From: a virus
Taxonomy: Duplodnaviria; Heunggongvirae; Uroviricota; Caudoviricetes
Reading direction: 5' to 3' (one strand)
Length of the DNA: 64,000 bases
Virus record (IMG/VR): IMGVR_UViG_2925939204_000001
Of the stretch, positions 1,440 to 15,299 are shown piece by piece. The notes under the pieces are model-generated. The model was not told where the DNA came from and did no database searches. It worked only from the letters and a program-made list of their open reading frames with translations. The first letter of the stretch is position 1. Every line of letters begins with the position of its first letter. The position numbers and the translations under genes are program-made.

Positions 1440-1466
1440 CAGGCCGCCATGTGCGGCCTTTTTTTG
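1440..1466 (+). terminator. rho-independent terminator hairpin (GGCCGC-CATGT-GCGGCC then T7) about 26 nt before the next start codon
   Basis: Perfect 6-bp GC stem plus TTTTTTT read directly at 1442-1465. Confidence 0.55.
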
Positions 1467-1492
1467 TATCCGTCATCCGTGGAGGAAGGACA

Positions 1493-2146
1493 ATGGAAAA
1501 GATCGCAATATTCAGCCTGACCACCAGCAAGCCTCAAATGCTCACTGCAATACTGAAAGACGGTGCTCTCATTATTAACGAAGTAAAACCCCTTCCCGCG
1601 TCAGCATTGGAGCAAAAGCAAAAAATTCCTCCAGCCATAGCAGCCCTGCGGAAAAGCAAATTTAAGGTACTGGTAGACGAAATTACGCCAACGATCTCCG
1701 CTGGCACCGGAGCAAGCCAGGTGACTCTCAAGACCCGTCATGCCGATGGCAGAGCAGCAATCATCGTCGGGATGGAAAGATACAGAGAGTTAAAACTCCA
1801 GAAGCTATTATCCCTGCCGCAAAATAACAAAGGTGCTTTCGAAATCCCCGACTCTATCGTTGATACCGAATACAACGGTAACGGAGAAGAAGTCTACAGG
1901 GTGAACTGGCAGGATATCAGGCCGGAGCATATTCTGATGATCCTGTGTTGCTACGCGACCGTATACCACAACGTTGCCAGTGCGGATTACGTAGAGCAGA
2001 TGACCGGTACAGTCGATAAAGAGCAAAAAACAGGCATACTCGCTTCGTTCCTTTCCATTATTGGGCATGAAAAAGTTAAAGCAGGCACCTCCCAGCCAAA
2101 GTCACTGGCTGGGAAAGAAGTTGATGAAGATACCGTGATACTTTGA
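1493..2146 (+). CDS. hypothetical protein (about 217 aa)
   Basis: ATG at 1493 preceded by GGAGGAAGG; the ORF track start at 1451 is a GTG inside the terminator and is rejected. Confidence 0.55.
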   Translation: MEKIAIFSLTTSKPQMLTAILKDGALIINEVKPLPASALEQKQKIPPAIAALRKSKFKVLVDEITPTISAGTGASQVTLKTRHADGRAAIIVGMERYRELKLQKLLSLPQNNKGAFEIPDSIVDTEYNGNGEEVYRVNWQDIRPEHILMILCCYATVYHNVASADYVEQMTGTVDKEQKTGILASFLSIIGHEKVKAGTSQPKSLAGKEVDEDTVIL

Positions 2147-2474
2147 TCACATTAGTAGCTTTGTTAACTCCCTCAATACCAGGTAGAAGAGTAACAAAAA
2201 TATTGACGCGAGTATTTGAGTGGTCAATGAAGCGTTCATAAACAGATCAATTAGCATTAATAATTCGAAGATAACATCCATGTCATTCACTCCGTTTAAT
2301 TTTTAATCTAATGCCAGCAAATGAAGCTGGCCCCCGCATAAAGATTAATGAAAGTCACTTGTCACCAGTGAGGGGATTTATGAACCACATCCCCCTGAAC
2401 TGGTGGCCTGTCTGTTTCTCGCATTTCACACCCTGCATACAGTTTCCCCCAGGTTATGACTGAGAGGCTTTGTT

Positions 2475-2804
2475 ATGGGCTATAGCAGACTCGACGATAG
2501 GTACATTGAAGACGATATTTTTCGTGCGCTGTTTCACCAGGAAATGATTAAGCGGGTATCGGAGTATCACTCTGATAATTTCCAGTACACGATAAAGATT
2601 GATGAAGTATATCGTTCAGACCTTGCAGCCTACAGGGCGTATGGCAATGCAGATTTGCGCTGGGTATTCCGGGTGCTGGTGGGCCATGAGTCAGAAATGG
2701 AAGAAATGCCCGCCGGGACCACGTTAACTCTTCCTGATGTGGCATGGCTGAGGAACAAGATCCGTGATTACGCGAGCGCGGAACCGGAGATAGAAAATGC
2801 CTGA
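2475..2804 (+). CDS. hypothetical protein, translationally coupled to the next gene
   Basis: ORF track; ATGCCTGA overlap with the 2797 start. Confidence 0.5.
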   Translation: MGYSRLDDRYIEDDIFRALFHQEMIKRVSEYHSDNFQYTIKIDEVYRSDLAAYRAYGNADLRWVFRVLVGHESEMEEMPAGTTLTLPDVAWLRNKIRDYASAEPEIENA

Positions 2805-3990
2805 TTTCCTGAAAAACCAGGACGGGCGCTATATCACTGACGGCCTGTCCTCTAAGGACTTCACGCGTTTATTCGAGCTTATCAGGAAAGAACAAACCCG
2901 TAAGCGCCGACAAGCTCACCGGACGCTGACGCCAGGTAGACTGAGGAACAAATCCGCCGAAGATATTCTCAAGTTAGGGAAGAAAAAAGGCGGCACGTTC
3001 TTCACGCGAGACGACCTGAAAGGTTTCGAAAAGCTACGGAGTAAAACGCGCGAAAAATATGACAGCAAGACGGCTGGCATCACATACGCCCAGCTGGTGG
3101 CATCCAGCCAGGCAATCGATATTAAGCGTGCAAATAACGCCGTGGATGACGGATCTGGTATCAAAAGAGCTACACCCGTATCTCTTCGCCACAACGTGAT
3201 TAATATCCGCGTAGAAGCATCGGATATATCCGTCCACCAGCACCATATCGTCCGGATACGCTTTGAAGAATGGGATCAGATGGTCGATAACATCGCAGAA
3301 GACGATAAATCAGCTCTGAAAATCACTAAATCACTGTGCGCCGGGCGGGTGTCTTTCGATTGTGACTGTGGTCGTCATCAATACTGGTATCGTTACATCG
3401 CTACTGCGGGTAACTTTGCCCTGGCCCCGCCAAAAGAATACGCCTATCCAAAAGTTCGCAACCCGAAGCTGCAAGGCGTCGCCTGTAAACACGTGATCCA
3501 CTCAATGACGCGGTTACAGTCCGCCAGTTGGCAAATGAGTATTGCTCGTGCGCTACAAAAGGCTGCAACGCAAATTGCATTTGGTGACGATCGCCGCCGT
3601 ACAACCAAACACTTCTCAAAAGAAGACGAGAAGGAGTTTAATCGCAATCGTAGCAGTAAAACGAACGTTGAAGCCGCCAAACGCGAATGGAGGCTCTATC
3701 AGAAGCGCCAGGCAGCTTTAAGTACAAAACTGGCAAAGGACAACGGCAAGATCGACAAACTACGTGACCAATTGACCAAGGCCAGAAAGTTGTCAGATGC
3801 ACAGAAAAAACGGGCGGCAGCAAAAGAAGCGGCCTTGCAACGTGAGAAACAGAAAAACAAGGAGCTTCAGCAACGCCTTGCCGATCAGTTCGCACTGAAG
3901 AAGCAGGCGTTCATTGATGCGCTTGTCATGGCTGGAACACCACCAGCACAAGCTGAAAAAATGTTCATGGAGTATGTAAAAAAAGCATAA
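2797..3990 (+). CDS. SWIM-type zinc-finger protein with a highly charged coiled-coil C-terminus
   Basis: CxCx(n)CxH pattern FDCDCGRHQYW...GVACKHVIH; K/R/E-rich C-terminal 120 aa. Confidence 0.5.
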   Translation: MPDFLKNQDGRYITDGLSSKDFTRLFELIRKEQTRKRRQAHRTLTPGRLRNKSAEDILKLGKKKGGTFFTRDDLKGFEKLRSKTREKYDSKTAGITYAQLVASSQAIDIKRANNAVDDGSGIKRATPVSLRHNVINIRVEASDISVHQHHIVRIRFEEWDQMVDNIAEDDKSALKITKSLCAGRVSFDCDCGRHQYWYRYIATAGNFALAPPKEYAYPKVRNPKLQGVACKHVIHSMTRLQSASWQMSIARALQKAATQIAFGDDRRRTTKHFSKEDEKEFNRNRSSKTNVEAAKREWRLYQKRQAALSTKLAKDNGKIDKLRDQLTKARKLSDAQKKRAAAKEAALQREKQKNKELQQRLADQFALKKQAFIDALVMAGTPPAQAEKMFMEYVKKA

Positions 3991-3997
3991 ACCACAC

Positions 3998-4034
3998 ATA
4001 GCCTAGCTGCCTAGGCTAGGCTTTCATCTTTTTG
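3998..4034. terminator. hairpin AGCCTAG-ctgc-CTAGGCT followed by a T-tract, between convergent genes
   Basis: Inverted repeat at 4000-4017 then ...tttcatctttttg. Confidence 0.45.
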
Positions 4035-4752
4035 AAAAATCAATTTCCGTTTTATCAAATAAATTTGAAATATCAGCAACCAATTTATTAAAATCATGAT
4101 CGCCATTATAAAGCGAAGTCTTCTTTATTGCCATTACAAAATCATATAACTTTTCTGGGGAGTCAATACCAACCCCTCTACTTTTAAAAAGCTCAATGAT
4201 AACTCCAACATCATCATATAATAACTTTATTGCCGCCATAATCTCTTTTTGCTGCCTAAGCAATCTCTCAAGTTCATTTTTATTTTCATCCATAATTCTT
4301 TTGTTGAATTGTGTATCATTAATACTTTTTATTATTTCAGCCTCTTTTATTTGCAACGCCTTTCTTTTATTTTGATCCATGTCAGCATCCAAATACCTTA
4401 TCTCTGTGTATATTTTACTTGTTAGCTTTGATACGCAAAGAGTGACAATCGGAGCTGCAATTGATGCAATAATTCCAAAAATAAATGGCAAGAAAAAATG
4501 ATAAAACCAAGGAGACAAAACGCCTTCATAAACTAGAGGAATCTTACCTCCAACAAATGTTACAGATAAAGTATATAGGATATCATCCTTTGACTTCATC
4601 AATATTAGTATATCTTTCCAATTAATAATTAGAAAAGAAATTAATATATATGCAAACACTTTATTAAAAAGCTTGTCTTTTATGGCATCTCCAAAAGATA
4701 CTTTGATTAGATCATTTTCAGTCAATTTTTCTGTTGATGAATCTGTATTCAT
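4024..4752 (-). CDS. AT-rich membrane protein (two predicted TM helices) with cytoplasmic coiled-coil; candidate abortive-infection/exclusion effector
   Basis: Strongly AT-rich coding region versus neighbours; hydrophobic segments VFAYILISFLIINW and WFYHFFLPFIFGIIASIAAPIVTLCV; K/E-rich heptad C-terminus. Confidence 0.5.
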   Translation of the reverse strand: MNTDSSTEKLTENDLIKVSFGDAIKDKLFNKVFAYILISFLIINWKDILILMKSKDDILYTLSVTFVGGKIPLVYEGVLSPWFYHFFLPFIFGIIASIAAPIVTLCVSKLTSKIYTEIRYLDADMDQNKRKALQIKEAEIIKSINDTQFNKRIMDENKNELERLLRQQKEIMAAIKLLYDDVGVIIELFKSRGVGIDSPEKLYDFVMAIKKTSLYNGDHDFNKLVADISNLFDKTEIDFSKR

Positions 4753-4814
4753 ATAAACTACCGTGATTTCTAATATCTATTTTATGAAAATAGCTGTCAT
4801 CCAGACCGCCAAAC

Positions 4815-5174
4815 TCAAATACCAACCAAGCTTTCAAGAGGAATGCCAAACTGGGAATGTAAACGGCGAATCATAGGTAACGTCAAATTTCGTGTCCCAT
4901 TTAGCACTTCGTAAACACGATTTGACTTACCAATCGCCGGCTCCAGATCCTTCACGGTCAGCCCTTGCTGTTCCATACGGAATTTAATGGCCTCAATAGG
5001 TGATGGTGGCTCAATTGGGTAATGTTTTTTCTCGTACTCCTCAATGAGAAGACTCATAACCTCAAAGAAATCACCTTCCGGAGTATTCATTTCCGGTTCG
5101 TTATCGAACATCGGTTCGACCGCACGCAGTGCGGCCTCATAATCTTGTTCTGTACGGATAGGTTTAATGTTCAT
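4815..5174 (-). CDS. HigA-like HTH regulator/antitoxin (N-terminal domain plus C-terminal HTH, YgjM/COG5499 architecture), no cognate toxin adjacent
   Basis: C-terminal segment GLTVKDLEPAIGKSNRVYEVLNGTRNLTLPMIRRLHSQFGIPLESL matches the HigA C-terminal HTH pattern. Confidence 0.55.
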   Translation of the reverse strand: MNIKPIRTEQDYEAALRAVEPMFDNEPEMNTPEGDFFEVMSLLIEEYEKKHYPIEPPSPIEAIKFRMEQQGLTVKDLEPAIGKSNRVYEVLNGTRNLTLPMIRRLHSQFGIPLESLVGI

Positions 5175-5186
5175 TAATTACAAAGG

Positions 5187-5220
5187 AAAGCCCACTTGCT
5201 AAGTGGGCTTTTTGTATGTG
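5187..5220. terminator. palindromic hairpin AAAGCCCACTT-gcta-AGTGGGCTTT separating higBA from the downstream HTH gene
   Basis: Perfect 10-bp inverted repeat flanked by U-rich sequence on both strands. Confidence 0.5.
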
Positions 5221-5230
5221 TTTTACTATA

Positions 5231-5569
5231 TCAGGCTGCTTTTTTATTCAGGTTCCGCTGAGAAATAAATTTTTCAGCAGTATTGATACGACTTAACTCT
5301 TCCTGGACGCGCATATCATTTTCGACTTCCCACAGATCTACTGCGGTCTGAAGATTAATCCAAAAATCTACAGAAGTATCGAATGCTTTTGCCAGGCGAT
5401 ATGCCATATCCATCGTTAGCTTACGATTGTTATTAACAAGAGCGCTTACGGTGTTACGATGAACATGAAGTATTTCTGCTAACTCGTTGATCTTCAGCTC
5501 TAACGGCTCCAGGTATTCGTACAGCAGGATATCACCTACGGTCGTCGGTTTTCTGGTTGCCTGTTTCAT
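5231..5569 (-). CDS. higA: HigA-family antitoxin (XRE HTH, COG3093-type)
   Basis: HTH region LAEILHVHRNTVSALVNNNRKLTMDMAYRLAKAFDTSVDFWINLQ; directly downstream of the HigB-like toxin. Confidence 0.75.
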   Translation of the reverse strand: MKQATRKPTTVGDILLYEYLEPLELKINELAEILHVHRNTVSALVNNNRKLTMDMAYRLAKAFDTSVDFWINLQTAVDLWEVENDMRVQEELSRINTAEKFISQRNLNKKAA

Positions 5570-5639
5570 TTTTTGCCCTTACTAGCGTGCGTATTAAGTG
5601 GACTCTGGTCAGAACCCGGTCCGTAACCGGGTATCTGTT

Positions 5640-5942
5640 TTAGTATTTGTGAGGGTCGAGATACAAGTCCTCGGCCTTTCCGTTAACCCACTTAAAAATT
5701 AACCTATATTGCTTATTCACCCTTACTGATGAATAGCCATTTAGCTTCCCTGACAGTTCCTCATACCGATTACCTGGTGGTGATCTTAAATCCTTACAGG
5801 TAGTTGCGGCATTGATAATGTCCAACTTCCGTGACAATGTCATATGAATATCAGGAGGTATCTTTCTATGTGGTGTTGAAAATTCAAAAAAATCATCAAG
5901 CCACGCATCCCTGAAATCCTTTATGTTAATTTTTTTGGTCAT
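5640..5942 (-). CDS. higB: HigB toxin (RelE/ParE fold, plasmid maintenance killer family)
   Basis: C-terminal pattern NRYEELSGKLNGYSSVRVNKQYRLIFKWVNGKAEDLYLDPHKY typical of HigB; toxin-upstream-of-antitoxin order. Confidence 0.8.
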   Translation of the reverse strand: MTKKINIKDFRDAWLDDFFEFSTPHRKIPPDIHMTLSRKLDIINAATTCKDLRSPPGNRYEELSGKLNGYSSVRVNKQYRLIFKWVNGKAEDLYLDPHKY

Positions 5943-6104
5943 TAGTCATTTGATCCTCCGTGATGATTACCGAATGCCATAACTATAGCGCACCGTTGCA
6001 CTGTGCGCAAGTGCATTTTATGAATTCCCCCTCCTTCATCCAAAATCACAATCTCCCGAAAATCTTCCTTTCGATACCTGACAGATCGACCTTTGAGGAT
6101 GCTT

Positions 6105-6896
6105 ATGGGCCGTTTTGACGAATGGTTTGCTGACGATGCAAACCTGGCAAGTAAGGAGTCAGAACATGACAGCACGCAGAGAGAAACGCCAGCGCCGATT
6201 GAAGCGAATGCAGGAGGCGCGCCGGAACATGGCAATACCGGTTCGGATTCATTCAGCATTCTGGAAGAGCAACCCGCCGCCAAAGCTGATAGCCATGATA
6301 ATTTTGCTGATAGCAACGGTGGCCTTACTCCGGATGCTGGCGAATCAGATATAGCCATACTTCCATCTTCCCTGGCTGGCAGAGAACCGACTCCACAGTT
6401 AAAAGCACGCTATAACGGGCATAAAGCCTTTAACGACCAAATCCGCGCAGACTGGATGCTGATTATTGAATCCAGCCCAGACGCGTTTCAGGCTCTCTTA
6501 TATCGACCAGATGTTGGCACATATGGGGTAGTCAGCGACGAAACAGGAGAAGAGTCATTCACTGAACTGGATAACAACCAACGCGAACTGACTTACCAGG
6601 AACCTGAAATCGTTTATGTGCTGGATAACCCTGACGGGCGTGACTCTTTCCATGCGATTGACGCAGACGGTGAGCAGGATGGCTTAACCGATGATGTTCT
6701 GATTCTGCGTATTGCAGCAAATAACGTCCCCGTCGGCTCAATTCTTGAATGGAATGAAGAGATGGTAAACGGCGTAGCGCGCCGCTGGTGGTACGTGCAC
6801 CGTATTTTTAGCTACGGCACACAGCATGTTGGTTCGCTTTACTACTGCATACCTGCCAGGAATTTTGATACGACTCAAAACGGAGTGATCGAATGA
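6105..6896 (+). CDS. phage protein with acidic low-complexity N-terminal half
   Basis: ORF track (6093); ATG at 6105 has better GAGG spacing. Confidence 0.5.
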   Translation: MGRFDEWFADDANLASKESEHDSTQRETPAPIEANAGGAPEHGNTGSDSFSILEEQPAAKADSHDNFADSNGGLTPDAGESDIAILPSSLAGREPTPQLKARYNGHKAFNDQIRADWMLIIESSPDAFQALLYRPDVGTYGVVSDETGEESFTELDNNQRELTYQEPEIVYVLDNPDGRDSFHAIDADGEQDGLTDDVLILRIAANNVPVGSILEWNEEMVNGVARRWWYVHRIFSYGTQHVGSLYYCIPARNFDTTQNGVIE

Positions 6897-7660
6897 CTTC
6901 AAATAAAACCCTCCTGGCGCGAACAGGTGAATGGCAAACCTCACGTACAGGAAAATTCCAGACCACGGGCTTTGAAAACGTGGATAACGCGTTTGCGACG
7001 CTAATCAGCAACATTTTTTCTGATATCTTACTGGTGGCCCCCGCGCCGGAAGAAAAACGCTTTGCGTCATTCCTGAATCGTCCACCAGCAGAGCGTGTCT
7101 ATGTGGCCCGTTTCGACAATGCGATCGAGTTTCTTAAAGCAGTTCGTCGCGCAAATGCCGGGCAAGGGAGAAAACCTGAAAACCAGAACATTAACCGGGA
7201 TGCTCTCCCCCTGGTCAATATCTCACGCACTATGGATATCAATTATATCAACGATGATCAGCAGATTGACCGCAAAAAAGTAGCCAGTTTTTGCGAACCG
7301 GATACCGGAATGCCTTTAGCAGAACTGGAATACACCCAGGCCATTCTGACGTATGACGTTACGTTAATGGCAACTGATAAAGCGACCATGAGTCTGATGT
7401 GTAATTCGCTGGGCGCACGGCTTCGCCTGATGACAGGTACACAATTTGAAGCAACCACTCACCTTGTTCGTGTCCCGGTCCCGCTGATTTGCTCGATACA
7501 GGATGCCAAAGAAGTCGGCTTTACGGATGTTTCAGCACCAATTGGAGAAGAGCGTATTTATGCCACACAAGCGCCGATAAGTGTGATTGCAGACGTGATC
7601 ACAGCATGGGAGTTGGACGCAAAACGTATTATTACCGAAACCTCGATATCTATGGGGTGA
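6893..7660 (+). CDS. phage structural protein (baseplate candidate)
   Basis: ORF track; overlapping-stop coupling within the 6105-9294 operon. Confidence 0.4.
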   Translation: MTSNKTLLARTGEWQTSRTGKFQTTGFENVDNAFATLISNIFSDILLVAPAPEEKRFASFLNRPPAERVYVARFDNAIEFLKAVRRANAGQGRKPENQNINRDALPLVNISRTMDINYINDDQQIDRKKVASFCEPDTGMPLAELEYTQAILTYDVTLMATDKATMSLMCNSLGARLRLMTGTQFEATTHLVRVPVPLICSIQDAKEVGFTDVSAPIGEERIYATQAPISVIADVITAWELDAKRIITETSISMG

Positions 7661-7663
7661 TAA

Positions 7664-8644
7664 GTGGCCCAGGAGTTACAACAATATTTTCTACAGTCAG
7701 TGCTCATTAACGATAACAAAGTGCCACGAGACTGGATTTTTACCGCAGTATATGTAGAAAAAACCAGCCTCAAAGCCCCTTTGCTAAAACTGGAAATTCA
7801 TGACGCTACCGGCACCGTAATTGATGACTGGAAAGCCAAATACGGTGCATCGCTGGTGGCTGAAATGGGCGATCCAAACGGTAATGCAGGCACTTTTAAA
7901 ACAGATTTCTTTGTTACGTCTGCAATGCTGGCTGGTGATGTTGTTACCGTTATTGCTGTCAGTGAAGACGTGCGCAGGTTTAAGATCCCCTCCCCGCGCA
8001 CAAATTTACATACCAACAAAACACCAGACGCTATATTCAAGGCATATTCCGGCAAACTTAAAATTACCAGCAGCGTGCTAAAACGCGCAGTTACATATCA
8101 TCTGAATGCCGGTGACAAACCGTCAAAAATGCTTTCGGAGATAGCGCGAGACAAAGGTGCATTGTGTTGGGTATGTCGGGGGGAATTTAACTTTTACACC
8201 CTGGCTGATCTGATGAAGCAAACGCCATCATTTACCTACGAGGGGAATAACCCTAAAGCAGAATACACTTTGTCCAAAATGCGCCTACTCCAACAGGAAC
8301 ATGCGACAACAGCAAAGAATCAATATCGTTTTGTTGGGTATTCCATGACCGATGGCTACGTCGAATATGGCGATAGCTCACTCCCAGTGCGTTATATATC
8401 CGACTCTGATATGGAAACTCTTCGCAATATGCAGCTGTCTCTCGTCCCCAAAATGGATATAGAAGTCGCAGGCAATCCTGATATAAAACCGGGGATGGTA
8501 ATAGAGATTATCGTATACCGCTATGACCAGGAAAACCGCATTGATGAATCAATGCCCCGTAAGCTGATAGTAAAAAATGTTGCGCACTTTGAGGACCGCG
8601 TAGGCTACACAACACGAATGATATTGGGAGTGCCTAACAAATGA
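7664..8644 (+). CDS. phage structural protein (baseplate candidate)
   Basis: ORF track; operon context. Confidence 0.4.
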   Translation: MAQELQQYFLQSVLINDNKVPRDWIFTAVYVEKTSLKAPLLKLEIHDATGTVIDDWKAKYGASLVAEMGDPNGNAGTFKTDFFVTSAMLAGDVVTVIAVSEDVRRFKIPSPRTNLHTNKTPDAIFKAYSGKLKITSSVLKRAVTYHLNAGDKPSKMLSEIARDKGALCWVCRGEFNFYTLADLMKQTPSFTYEGNNPKAEYTLSKMRLLQQEHATTAKNQYRFVGYSMTDGYVEYGDSSLPVRYISDSDMETLRNMQLSLVPKMDIEVAGNPDIKPGMVIEIIVYRYDQENRIDESMPRKLIVKNVAHFEDRVGYTTRMILGVPNK

Positions 8645-9294
8645 AGCGTAGAGCGCAAATTGTTGGAACTGTGCACCCGGCAGGGCTTATGCGTGCTCAA
8701 GTCCGTGTTTTACCTGACTGGAATGGCGTTCCTGATGACGATCTACCCTGGGCGGAATACCAGTTACCCATCGGGAACGCTTTTGTACCTACAGTCAAAG
8801 GTGACCTGGTCTGGGTAGAGTTTCCTTATTTAGATGTTAACGGTCGAATAGACACCAGACGCCCAATGATAGTTGGTGCCGCTCAGGATGCACCGGGAGG
8901 AATTCCAAACGTTGCACCAGAAGCATCTGGTAAAGGCAACGGCTGGACGCCGCCGGAAGTAGATGGAGCACCTCCCCGCCCCCAAATCTCAGCAACGAAA
9001 GACTTCGTTATTCACCGCAACAATATTCTTGAAGTACGAACTGCTGGTGGCGGCTATGAAATTGCCAATACGGCAGCAGGCTCAAGGATTGGCATGAATG
9101 AGTCCGGGCAGATATATATCATTGGTCCGGCTGATGTAATCGTGAATGCAGGAGGGAGTGTTAACGTCAAATCAGCCAACAACATCAATGTTAATGGGGA
9201 AAATATAGCTGTCACCGCTAACGGAGACATAGCTTTCAAGGCAGGAGGAACCTTTCAGGCCACTGCTGGCAACTTCGATTTCAAGAAAGGATAG
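8641..9294 (+). CDS. baseplate central spike protein (gpV-like)
   Basis: N-terminal OB-fold-like region and C-terminal repeated beta-helix motifs (NVNGENIAVTANGDIAFKAGGTFQATAGNFDF). Confidence 0.6.
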   Translation: MKRRAQIVGTVHPAGLMRAQVRVLPDWNGVPDDDLPWAEYQLPIGNAFVPTVKGDLVWVEFPYLDVNGRIDTRRPMIVGAAQDAPGGIPNVAPEASGKGNGWTPPEVDGAPPRPQISATKDFVIHRNNILEVRTAGGGYEIANTAAGSRIGMNESGQIYIIGPADVIVNAGGSVNVKSANNINVNGENIAVTANGDIAFKAGGTFQATAGNFDFKKG

Positions 9295-14665: not shown

Positions 14666-15299
14666 TTAATAACTCCTTAACCAACATCTGGATTTCACCT
14701 TTAGCTTTCCCGTTGTCCATCTCAACAACGCCCTTCCCTTCAGCCATGCAATCGCGGTAAACCTTACGATCACGAATGATGGTTTTCAGCAACTTCAGTT
14801 GCGGATATTCAGCCAGGTACTCTTTGGCCTCATTGGTTTCATTCACAACCGGATTGGATGGGGCCATTGTTAAGACTGCGAACGCCTTAATGCTAGGATT
14901 AGGCATCAGGTCCAAAGCCTCTTCAAACACTTCAACAAAGTGTGCCAGCGTGTCTAAATCTGGTTGAGATGGTCTGAATGGGACCAACACAATATCTGCA
15001 GCGGTTATGCCTGTACGCATCTCTTTGCTATCGCGCCCGGCTGTATCAACAACAACAAATTCATAACGCTTATCCAGATCGAGAAGTGTTTCTCGAATAT
15101 TACCAAACTTCTGGACACAATGAATTACAGGAGAAACCTCTGCCGTGTTACGGTCAGCTGCCCAGCGGGCAGCTGTTCCTTGCTTGTCTGCATCTAGTAA
15201 CACTACATCCTTATTTGCGCGGGCAAGCTCCGCACAGATGTTTACGCTTGTGGTTGATTTTCCACAGCCACCTTTTTGGCTGACTACCAATATAATCAT
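14658..15299 (-). CDS. parA: ParA/ParF-type partition ATPase (small type Ib Walker ATPase)
   Basis: Deviant Walker A KGGCGKST; ATG at 15299 with GAGGAA RBS (ORF track opens at 15329). Confidence 0.85.
   Translation of the reverse strand: MIILVVSQKGGCGKSTTSVNICAELARANKDVVLLDADKQGTAARWAADRNTAEVSPVIHCVQKFGNIRETLLDLDKRYEFVVVDTAGRDSKEMRTGITAADIVLVPFRPSQPDLDTLAHFVEVFEEALDLMPNPSIKAFAVLTMAPSNPVVNETNEAKEYLAEYPQLKLLKTIIRDRKVYRDCMAEGKGVVEMDNGKAKGEIQMLVKELLSD

Follow-up and report, generated by a model that had tools for sequence, protein, structure and literature searches.

A gene pair resembling an accessory cassette is the head of the P1-type tail operon in a D6-like phage genome

Two plus-strand genes of the viral sequence IMGVR_UViG_2925939204_000001 are D6-type orthologs of late genes 26 and 25 of phage P1 and open the conserved morphogenesis operon 26-25-7-24-6-5 as its first two cistrons. 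ORF1 (positions 2475 to 2804, 109 amino acids [aa]) and ORF2 (positions 2797 to 3990, 397 aa) were correctly delimited in a first-pass annotation of the window, by which we mean the whole 64,000-nucleotide stretch of DNA that was analyzed. That annotation took them for an accessory cassette of no evident function, a description overturned by their match to P1 tail genes 26 and 25. The gene identities were already known, as these are two annotated genes of a sequenced phage-plasmid that were rediscovered here. New here are the size of the gp25 family (697 clusters), its uniformly very basic character, a divergent SWIM-type metal site that is predicted from the sequences, and the lack of a solved structural relative.

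Identity of the two genes

Between positions 2300 and 4100 the window is 99.4% identical in DNA sequence to the phage-plasmid D6, the record of which identifies both genes (orf75 for ORF1 and orf74 for ORF2) as counterparts of late genes 26 and 25 of P1 by homology, with orf75 described as “similar to P1 gene 26.” ORF1 falls into phrog_1269, “baseplate wedge subunit” (2e-36), and its residues 4 to 99 matched “Gp26” of PDB 9ay5_S/9vzk in a phmmer search of the PDB (E value of 1e-16). In the P1 virion, gp26 is a six-copy baseplate “plug,” related to T4 gp53, that bridges wedge and hub (PMC12810830; bioRxiv 10.1101/2025.07.21.665459). ORF1 is the counterpart of this small tail protein, which lies in six copies between the wedges of the baseplate and its central hub, and it thus shows clear homology to a known structural family, that of the solved P1 gp26, which the first-pass annotation had named as grounds for refuting its reading.

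ORF2 is 57% identical to P1 gp25 (AAQ14053) over residues 1 to 334, and its residues 2 to 396 match phrog_1722 at 2.3e-196. The PHROG family matches (2e-36 for ORF1 and 2e-196 for ORF2) and the 301 database homologs of ORF2, which are about 400 aa long, mark both open reading frames as real genes. Since P1 gp25 is a genetically defined tail-morphogenesis gene product, ORF2 largely shares the fate of ORF1 as a member of a known family. The statement that function is not evident no longer holds for ORF1, given the baseplate role of P1 gp26, and it stands for the molecular function of the 397-aa protein, as that of P1 gp25 itself is not known (PMC9024508).

Junction and expression signals

The two genes overlap by 8 nt (...GAAAATGCCTGA...), with the ORF2 ATG (2797 to 2799) lying within the final ORF1 codons and the ORF1 TGA at 2802 to 2804. 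A GGAG (2786 to 2789) stands 7 nt 5' of the ORF2 ATG, so that the whole junction spans positions 2786 to 2804 of the plus strand, and the translational coupling previously proposed for the pair is upheld by this arrangement. A Shine-Dalgarno-like GAGAGG (2462 to 2467, plus strand), read off the sequence, is found 7 nt 5' of the ORF1 ATG.

Further upstream, at positions 2356 to 2383 of the plus strand, is a candidate late-promoter element composed of an inverted repeat, CACT-N7-AGTG (2356 to 2370), followed by TTTATGAA. A pattern search found three matches to elements of this type in the window versus 0.68 expected, and two of the three (at 2356 and 5999) each precede one half of the split operon described below. 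The element may be the late promoter of ORF1, an assignment that we make tentatively because it does not resemble annotated P1 LP26: the LP26 boxes as annotated in AF234172 (−22 box AAATGACTA and −10 box TAGAAT) have no counterpart upstream of ORF1. Directly 3' of the ORF2 stop codon, a terminator scan identified a bidirectional terminator-like hairpin (4000 to 4022) with a 9-bp stem containing 5 GC pairs on the plus strand and an 8-bp stem on the minus strand.

A core operon split by an island

In the P1 record, the late promoter LP26 is followed by genes 26-25-7-24-6-5. The corresponding continuation of the operon in the window occupies positions 6093 to 9294 on the plus strand, as identified by D6 annotation, PHROG matches, and synteny, and encodes homologs of gp7 (6093 to 6896; match to PDB 9ums_B at 6e-43), gp24 (6893 to 7660), gp6 (7664 to 8644), and gp5 (8641 to 9294). 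In P1 these proteins are the stopper, tail terminator, hub, and spike, respectively (PMC12810830). The gp7 homolog lies beyond a 2.1-kb insertion that begins after gene 25, with the terminator-like hairpin at its boundary. This island carries a HigBA pair and a gene encoding a PD-Lambda-2_B-like helix-turn-helix (HTH) protein, a membrane/coiled-coil gene is also near, and the GC content of the island is low (0.29 to 0.44 versus 0.45 to 0.50 for the operon genes).

Synteny was surveyed in 42 clades with less than 75% identity between clades, the locus search having been re-seeded with distant clades after a first round that gave close relatives only. The gene order across these divergent clades is Mat-26-25-7-24-6-5. 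gp26 is directly upstream of gp25 in 32 of the 42 clades and no more than 6 ORFs away in 37, and gp7 is directly downstream in 33 and no more than 7 ORFs away in 38. Where gp26 and gp25 are adjacent, the stop-to-start distance ranges from −8 to +12 nt in 30 of 32 clades; the remaining two values (−40 and −17) probably reflect overextended starts. At 71 of 103 distinct junctions gp25 and gp7 are contiguous and the island is absent, while the 26-25 arrangement is constant. In the ABMM1 and Rb1 clades, the gene after gp25 belongs to phrog_4597, which gave no BLASTP match to gp7 and a weak hhalign match (E value of 0.02 over 106 columns).

These data show that, in the D6 lineage, a foreign low-GC island split the operon after gene 25. 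The placement of the pair in the accessory part of the window does not survive the 42-clade synteny and the operon-like GC content: the pair looked accessory because of the low-GC island inserted after gene 25, whereas it is the pair that is core and the variable island beside it that is accessory DNA. The value of this result is corrective, as an apparent accessory cassette proves to be the head of a core tail operon.

The gp25 protein

The most conserved block of ORF2 comprises residues 184 to 245 (positions 3346 to 3531, plus strand) and contains the Cys/His motif C189-D-C191...C230-K-H232 (a C-x-C pair followed by C-K-H; codons at 3361 to 3363, 3367 to 3369, 3484 to 3486, and 3490 to 3492). 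C189, C191, C230, and H232 are invariant in 32 close homologs (alignment A1) and, together with K231, in 49 sequences with a mean column identity of 24% (alignment A2); because the four residues are invariant in both sets, the motif is under selection rather than a product of chance. The block also holds the invariant loop residues E214, P218, N222, G227, and K231 (A1 and A2), and in a motif listing of the 49 members the invariant C-x-C ... E..PK..N....G..C-K-H block is present in ORF2. We infer that C189, C191, C230, and H232 form a putative zinc site.

The first-pass annotation had called this motif SWIM-like. The CxC...CxH signature is confirmed; the SWIM family label is less secure, being suggested by subthreshold PF04434 matches and by Foldseek. 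PF04434 is the sole Pfam family that recurs among the relatives (11 of 49; best E value of 0.0024, all below threshold, as with relative P0224 at 11.6 bits versus a gathering threshold of 19.6 bits), and these matches fall on the stretch corresponding to ORF2 residues 184 to 245. ORF2 itself has no PF04434 match even at E values of up to 5. Foldseek matches of the ORF2 model in BFVD include two phage proteins labeled “SWIM-type domain-containing” in UniProt (E values of 1.6e-3 and 2.9e-3). In the literature searched, no relevant account of SWIM fingers in tail or virion proteins of phages turned up.

The extremely charged coiled-coil tail noted previously is borne out. Residues 291 to 378 (positions 3667 to 3930, plus strand) are 40% K/R/D/E with a net charge of +13, and they follow a heptad register in which 63% of a/d positions are hydrophobic versus 29% elsewhere. 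In an AlphaFold2 model of ORF2 (pLDDT of 81.6 and pTM of 0.71) they form one long helix, assigned by DSSP as helices 291 to 314 and 316 to 378, and residues 277 to 403 of P1 gp25 are described in the P1 record as having myosin-like similarity. The protein ends in a helix-Gly-helix (positions 3931 to 3987, plus strand) in which G380 and A386 are invariant in A1 and residues 383 to 396 are helical in the model; F372, D374, and A375, just upstream, are nearly invariant in A1. We infer that this element is a candidate partner-binding tip.

ORF2 is very basic (net charge of +37), and this property extends to the family: gp25 has a net charge of +20 to +46 in 42 of 42 clades, gp7 ranges from −11 to −45, and the operon partners of the extremely basic gp25 are all acidic. 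The family corresponds to phrog_1722 and phrog_4315; its members occur, in strict synteny, in phages of Gammaproteobacteria, Betaproteobacteria, and Desulfobacterota, and no extra domains were found in the unusually long ones. Zinc binding, oligomerization, and partners of gp25 are predictions from sequence and structural modeling.

Neither Pfam nor NCBIfam yielded a usable match to ORF2. Sequence searches of the PDB with ORF2 alone or with a 49-sequence profile returned noise only (pectin lyase at an E value of 0.034 and coiled-coil proteins), and Foldseek searches of the PDB with the full model or with a core domain modeled on its own (residues 113 to 290, pLDDT of 68) found no match, the best E value of about 0.4 coming from kinase/proteasome false positives. 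P1 gp25 likewise has no HHpred match, and no sequence or fold relative of gp25 was found in the PDB although the P1 virion has been deposited. PADLOC-DB 2.0 gave no match for ORF1 and one marginal coiled-coil match for ORF2 (PDC-S66; E value of 0.007, no stretch passing), and a defense role was rejected. Judged by Pfam domain and gene neighborhood, ORF2 does not belong to the tail assembly chaperones of the gpG/GT or P2 E/E' type: it has no Pfam TAC match, one relative has a chance-level match to Phage_TAC_7 (E value of 0.027), and the downstream genes encode gp7, gp24, gp6, and gp5, with no tape measure.

A proposed late role in tail completion

Our preferred reading, to which we assign a probability of roughly 55%, is that gp25 acts as a low-copy or transient late factor in tail completion or head-tail joining rather than as a repeating structural unit of the virion. 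It is favored because mutants are classed as “tail stability,” like those of gp7 (stopper) and gp24 (terminator) and unlike the “baseplate” gene 26, and because gp25 is absent from two near-atomic models of the P1 virion. Under this hypothesis, gp25 would be made in step with gp26 via the conserved translational coupling and would consist of a helical N-terminal region, a small beta-sheet, and a zinc-stabilized SWIM-type module with a long conserved insert loop. A heptad helix of about 90 residues would come next, probably driving oligomerization, and end in the conserved C-terminal tip. The basic zinc module might then bind acidic components of the neck or tail end, or the DNA end located there, and gp25 would be needed for a completed, noncontracting tail that is able to attach, or remain attached, to a filled head. 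Charge covariation was considered as a sign of such an interaction, and gp25 charge did not correlate significantly with gp7 charge or length (Spearman rho of 0.12 and −0.20), a result that counts against the hypothesis.

The P1 data on gp25 come from several sources. Database annotation gives “tail stability” for P1 genes 25, 7, and 24 and “baseplate” for genes 26 and 5; the phenotype is therefore second-hand, which weakens the case for a late role. When P1 gene 25 was knocked down by CRISPRi, plating fell only about 10-fold and the gene was scored nonessential, which also sits uneasily with a late role, although gene 26 behaved alike. The tight coupling to gp26 would suit a baseplate-side role equally well. 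Only two gp25 peptides were found by virion mass spectrometry (MS), a level at which four of nine proteins are known to be nonstructural; these peptides could nonetheless mean that gp25 is a real low-copy virion component, contrary to a nonvirion reading. The protein lists of both P1 cryo-electron microscopy (cryo-EM) studies, which present near-atomic models, do not include gp25 (PMC12810830; bioRxiv 10.1101/2025.07.21.665459).

Alternative roles for gp25

It is possible, if somewhat unlikely, that gp25 and gp26 act together on the baseplate side. In this role gp25 would be a chaperone or a flexible substoichiometric lock that helps to fit the six plugs of gp26 into place between the wedges and the trimeric hub. 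In the absence of gp25, baseplates would nucleate tails but the wedge-hub joint would fire early, yielding contracted (“unstable”) tails. The adjacency of gp26 and gp25 and their overlapping or abutting stop and start are kept across very distant clades, and Acinetobacter phage ABMM1 keeps both genes, with no gene 24, 6, or 5 seen after gp25 within the examined portion of that genome. Upon contraction of P1, the peripheral baseplate including gp26, which “glues” the wedge to the hub, separates from the center (PMC12810830), and the fit of six gp26 copies on three gp6 copies is reported to be poorly resolved (bioRxiv 10.1101/2025.07.21.665459). However, the annotated phenotypes of genes 26 and 25 differ, gp25 stays beside gp7 where insertions part it from gp26 (loci L176, L178, and L179), and the gp25-like gene of Xanthomonas phage Rb1 has no gp26-like ORF directly upstream in a high-GC locus for which ORFs were called by hand. 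Nor is gp25 seen in baseplate maps.

A role drawn by analogy with T4 gp2 or Mu N, in which one or a few copies of gp25 would bind DNA, possibly the genome end at the portal or neck, and leave with it, strikes us as rather unlikely. T4 gp2 is a DNA end protector that is needed for heads competent to join tails, and SWIM-type fingers are widely predicted to bind DNA; the coiled coil of gp25 would dimerize two DNA-binding heads. The basic charge of gp25 (+20 to +46 in all 42 clades) sets it apart from each neighboring structural protein, its behavior in virion MS resembles that of the DNA-binding hitchhikers Cre and Dmt, and it is invisible to symmetric cryo-EM. The T4 cluster 3 (terminator)-2 (DNA end protector)-4 (head closure) beside 53-5 also parallels 24/7/25 beside 26 and 5. 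On the other hand, Chi sites in P1 and D6 are unusually dense toward the packaged ends, and capped ends are disfavored because this density is interpreted as RecBCD use at free ends for circularization; gene 25 is, moreover, called a tail gene and not a head gene.

We also put forward, at decidedly long odds, the idea that gp25, as a zinc-finger, coiled-coil dimer, accompanies P1-type DNA, binding the packaged end or ends at the neck and being ejected with the genome. Older P1 literature is said to describe abortively transduced DNA as protein-held, nonreplicating circles. If the idea were true, bridging of two DNA ends by gp25 could account for these circles, and a DNA-traveling gp25 would explain the failure of stable head-tail particles without it.

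A regulatory role is very improbable. In such a scheme gp25 would be a basic zinc-finger factor acting on RNA polymerase or mRNA, for example in antitermination or translational control of 7-24-6-5, and a phage lacking it would resemble one partly depleted of gp7 and gp24. The phenotype class that it has in common with the genes immediately downstream would fit a basic zinc-finger protein of this kind, P1 is suspected to encode unidentified antiterminators, and the Rb1 homolog was automatically annotated as “MvaT.” However, that label rests on coiled-coil composition and no Pfam regulator domain was found, the protein has about 400 aa with a long coiled coil and is weakly detected in purified virions, and in D6 a hairpin and an island part gene 25 from genes 7 to 5, which seem to have their own upstream element, while gp25 is still fully conserved.

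An accessory cassette serving defense, plasmid stability, or a similar purpose with the nearby toxin and membrane-protein genes is almost certainly the wrong reading, for although the pair adjoins HigBA, the PD-Lambda-2_B-like HTH gene, and the membrane/coiled-coil gene and no Pfam domain was found in it, it is orthologous to P1 late genes of which one has a solved tail role (gp26) and the other is genetically defined (gp25), keeps a conserved order with the neck, hub, and spike genes in 42 clades, has the GC content of the operon rather than that of the island, and is constant, unlike the variable island, which is missing from 71 of 103 junctions.

The late role in tail completion that we favor bears on a phage that is much used in genetics and whose virion has been almost completely solved, yet in which gp25 has no place. 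P1 gp25 is the founding member of a very large syntenic family, and its putative SWIM site and its basicity could turn “tail stability” into concrete experiments.

Comparison with known systems

With SWIM proteins, ORF2 has in common the CxC...CxH signature; in the model, a strand (residues 185 to 189) leads into the CxC and a helix (residues 231 to 239) starts at “C-K-H,” an arrangement that may correspond to that of SWIM proteins. It differs in its 38-residue CxC-CxH spacer, which is longer than the typical SWIM spacer and holds an extra helix and the invariant E..PK..N...G loop, and in its N-terminal domain and coiled coil, which have no counterpart in described SWIM proteins.

T4 gp2 is a low-copy basic protein, as is proposed for gp25, and both are encoded among genes for tail-terminator, head-closure, gp53-type, and spike proteins. 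It shows neither sequence nor profile similarity to gp25, however, and it lacks both a Cys/His motif and a long coiled coil. The likeness is speculative; an hhalign comparison with alignment A2 (probability of 0.1%, E value of 0.53) led us to reject homology and retain an analogy only.

The closest comparison is with P1 itself. ORF1 and P1 gp26 belong to a common PHROG (1269), and each is encoded at the start of the late operon with gene 25 next in line, whereas their lengths differ (109 versus 125 aa) and their sequence similarity is moderate; D6 gp26 would take the plug position by analogy with the P1 virion. ORF2 resembles P1 gp25 in length (397 versus 405 aa), operon position, coiled-coil C terminus, and all invariant Cys/His residues, and departs from it in the diverged C-terminal coiled coil, the tblastn alignment covering residues 1 to 334 only. 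The setting of the pair differs as well. D6 gene 26 comes after a mat homolog, whereas P1 gene 26 comes after the pmgL-pmgN region. P1 gene 25 starts 9 nt past the gene 26 stop codon and abuts gene 7, while in D6 genes 26 and 25 overlap by 8 nt, and the terminator-like hairpin and the 2.1-kb island come after gene 25.

The gene pair belongs to a P1-type late operon

Two plus-strand genes, ORF1 (2475-2804; 109 aa) and ORF2 (2797-3990; 397 aa), were confirmed from a list of ORFs and by reading the sequence directly. The ATG of ORF2 lies inside the final codons of ORF1 (ATGCCTGA), giving an overlap of 8 nt, with GGAG upstream of this ATG and GAGAGG upstream of ORF1. The first-pass annotation had presented the pair as a translationally coupled accessory cassette whose second protein has a Cys/His motif and a charged coiled-coil tail. 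That description was accurate, since the ORFs, the overlap, the Cys/His residues (C189-D-C191 and C230-K-H232), and the tail were all confirmed; residues 291-378 are 40% charged, and in one heptad register hydrophobic residues occupy 63% of the a/d positions versus 29% elsewhere. However, the accessory framing was wrong, and the cassette has been described before: it is annotated as orf75/orf74 of the P1-like phage-plasmid Escherichia phage D6 and as genes 26/25 of phage P1.

Positions 2300-4100 are 99.4% identical to D6, whose record calls ORF1 a "baseplate wedge subunit, similar to P1 gene 26" and gives ORF2 as a "tail protein, similar to P1 gene 25." Several independent lines agree with these labels: matches to phrog_1269 (ORF1, 2e-36) and phrog_1722 (ORF2, 2e-196), alignment of ORF1 with the solved P1 Gp26 chains 9ay5_S/9vzk (E 1e-16), 57% identity between ORF2 and P1 gp25, and the P1 record, in which late promoter LP26 is followed by genes 26, 25, 7, 24, 6, and 5. 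The identity of the two genes and their operon membership are established. The same record assigns 26 and 5 to "baseplate" and 25, 7, and 24 to "tail stability." In two recent cryo-EM studies of P1 (PMC12810830; bioRxiv 10.1101/2025.07.21.665459), gp26 is a six-copy "plug," a relative of T4 gp53, that ties wedges and hub together. The head-side stopper is identified there with gp7, the tail terminator with gp24, the hub with gp6, and the spike with gp5. Homology assigns the gp26 role to ORF1.

When 1.84 billion representative proteins were searched with a profile, 697 clusters proved to be related to ORF2 (175 with E<=1e-30), almost always 330 to 450 aa long. Locus searches seeded from three different clades yielded contigs mostly of 45 to 95 kb, and the genome scan placed the family in Enterobacterales, Vibrio, Shewanella, Psychrobacter, Moraxella, Nitrosomonas, Desulfosarcina, and Bilophila/Desulfovibrio, among others. 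After ORF calling and protein clustering, 42 clades with <75% mutual identity shared the order Mat-like, gp26, gp25, gp7, gp24, gp6, gp5. The gp26 gene lies directly 5' of gp25 in 32 of the 42 (within 6 ORFs in 37), and gp7 directly 3' in 33 (within 7 ORFs in 38). The distance from gp26 stop to gp25 start is -8 to +12 nt in 30/32 adjacent cases, and comparison of these junctions therefore indicates that the coupling is ancient; in the two exceptions (-40 and -17) the start was probably called too far upstream. Acinetobacter phage ABMM1 keeps the 26-25 pair, with genes 24, 6, and 5 absent after gp25 in the part of its genome examined. A phrog_4597 gene, possibly a relative of gp7 (E 0.02), lies 3' of gp25 both there and in Xanthomonas phage Rb1.

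Several features of these loci are recorded as separate observations. The P1 mat homologue ("maturation control," phrog_1837; 1451-2146, plus strand), with no Pfam domain detected, is directly 5' of gene 26 and occurs within 6 ORFs upstream of gp25 in 30/42 clades, and a terminase-like gene is also present in that stretch in 12 clades; in P1 itself mat is not within ~3.5 kb upstream of gene 26. Adjacent minus-strand ORFs at 188-580 and 601-1224, of one protein family and with signal-peptide-like N termini, correspond to a region (equivalent to about 314-1210) where the D6 record annotates a single 298-aa "simB-like superimmunity accessory" CDS; either the window copy differs from that of D6 through a frameshift or a stop codon, or the D6 record may be in error. 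The Rb1 gp25 homologue is misannotated as "transcriptional regulator MvaT," and the Rb1 portal (121-2403 of its locus, phrog_1497) has a C-terminal PBECR1 barnase/EndoU/RelE-like nuclease domain (PF18809, 8e-07). T4 gp4 (gene 4, "head closure"; 6886-7338 of the T4 locus) matches the TnsA-like endonuclease N-terminal domain (PF08722, 2e-21), an unexpected fold in a head-completion protein.

A minus-strand island separates genes 25 and 7

Four minus-strand genes (4024-5942) stand between ORF2 and the gp7 homologue at 6093. They encode a 242-aa membrane/coiled-coil protein (phrog_8191, GC 0.29), a 119-aa helix-turn-helix (HTH) protein that corresponds to only positions 1-119 of the 402 in PADLOC PD-Lambda-2_B (E 4e-43), a HigA-like HTH protein, and a HigB toxin (PF05015, 4e-35). 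Their GC content is 0.29 to 0.44, versus 0.45 to 0.50 in the operon genes, and terminator-like hairpins flank them. Public viral contigs supplied 103 distinct gp25-gp7 junctions: the two genes are contiguous at 71 of them, and at 31 they are separated by variable minus-strand cargo, which differs even between D6-like elements. Because of its low GC, its bounding hairpins, and this variability, the island is a moron-type insertion in a core operon, and it may act as a defense/addiction module. ORF1 and ORF2 are no part of it; in PADLOC, ORF1 had no match and ORF2 a single marginal one, on the coiled coil (E 0.007).

The junction is a cargo hotspot (contigs L004-L035, L047, L174, and L210; e.g., L024 11432-14110 and L019 11231-12752), with 0.9 to 2.9 kb of genes that are unlike between near-identical D6-like elements: alternative 209- to 263-aa proteins, with or without HigBA, or paired 119-aa HTH genes. 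CACT-N7-AGTG inverted repeats at 2356-2370 and 5999-6013, upstream of the two halves of the split operon, and at 14928-14942 (3 matches versus 0.68 expected) are each followed by TTTATGAA. Judged from sequence, these repeats could serve as late-promoter (Lpa-like) sites of the D6 type; they bear no resemblance to the annotated LP26 boxes of P1.

gp25 is a basic protein with a putative metal site

In 49 gp25-family sequences with a mean column identity of 24%, the only invariant residues were C189, C191, E214, P218, N222, G227, C230, K231, and H232, plus the start Met and one Gly. The AlphaFold2 model of ORF2 (pLDDT 81.6, pTM 0.71) comprises N-terminal helices, a three-stranded sheet, a CxC-bearing strand, and an inserted helix and loop, followed by a helix starting at C-K-H, two further helices, a ~90-residue helix, and a short C-terminal helix. 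Sequence, profile, and fold searches of the PDB found no relative. The SWIM-like character claimed for the motif stood in part: PF04434 (SWIM) was the sole recurrent Pfam family, aligning on the Cys/His motif in 11/49 members (best E 0.0024, all subthreshold), but ORF2 itself gave no hit. In Foldseek searches of viral predicted structures, small phage proteins matched the model (E 3e-5 to 3e-3), two of them labelled SWIM-type. Because of these weak but consistent signals, we regard the site as a divergent SWIM-type, putative metal site with a 38-residue insert.

Across the 42 clades gp25 is uniformly very basic (net charge +20 to +46, median +35), whereas the median charges of gp26, gp7, gp24, gp6, and gp5 are neutral to acidic, and gp7 is strongly acidic without exception (median -25.5). 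The gp7 proteins range from 158 to 302 aa and from -11 to -45 in charge. The N-terminal ~100 residues of the window homologue (6093-6400, plus strand) form a very acidic, low-complexity extension missing in many clades, and solved P1 Gp7 (9ums_B) aligns only to residues 101-260.

Possible roles of gp25

For P1 gp25, HHpred gave "None >50%." Virion LC-MS/MS detected two peptides (8.4% coverage), a signal shared by nine proteins, of which four are known to be nonstructural (Cre, Dmt, Ant1, and TciA). In both cryo-EM studies gp25 is missing from the lists of components, whether modelled or not. CRISPRi knock-down of gene 25 reduced plating ~10-fold, equal to gene 26, in an assay prone to polarity and incomplete repression.

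Our best inference is that gp25 works late and is either transient or present in few copies, because its annotated phenotype class is that of the stopper and terminator, unlike gp26, because it is absent from ordered density, and because its gene sits between those of gp26 and gp7. A zinc-stabilized basic head would bind the acidic neck/tail-end proteins, or the DNA end, the coiled coil would oligomerize, and without the protein the tail would not be finished, stable, and joined to the head. The conserved gp26/gp25 coupling would also suit a protein that helps or locks the gp26 plug on the baseplate side, a role that we find possible but doubtful. Less probable again is a DNA- or DNA-end-binding protein that departs with the genome; the extreme basicity favors it, and the argument that dense Chi sites deliberately expose P1/D6 ends to RecBCD speaks against it. 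That gp25 regulates the downstream genes is unlikely.

The interest that remains is modest and lies in a conserved, basic, SWIM-type protein, so far unplaced, in the core of a classic phage's tail operon; the signature of its family is now defined, and the hypotheses about it can be tested. T4 offers a comparison for DNA-end binding: its gp2 has no homology to gp25, which weakens the case, but the T4 record confirms a gene cluster, 3-2-4/53-5, that resembles the P1-type arrangement and, by analogy, would favor such a role.
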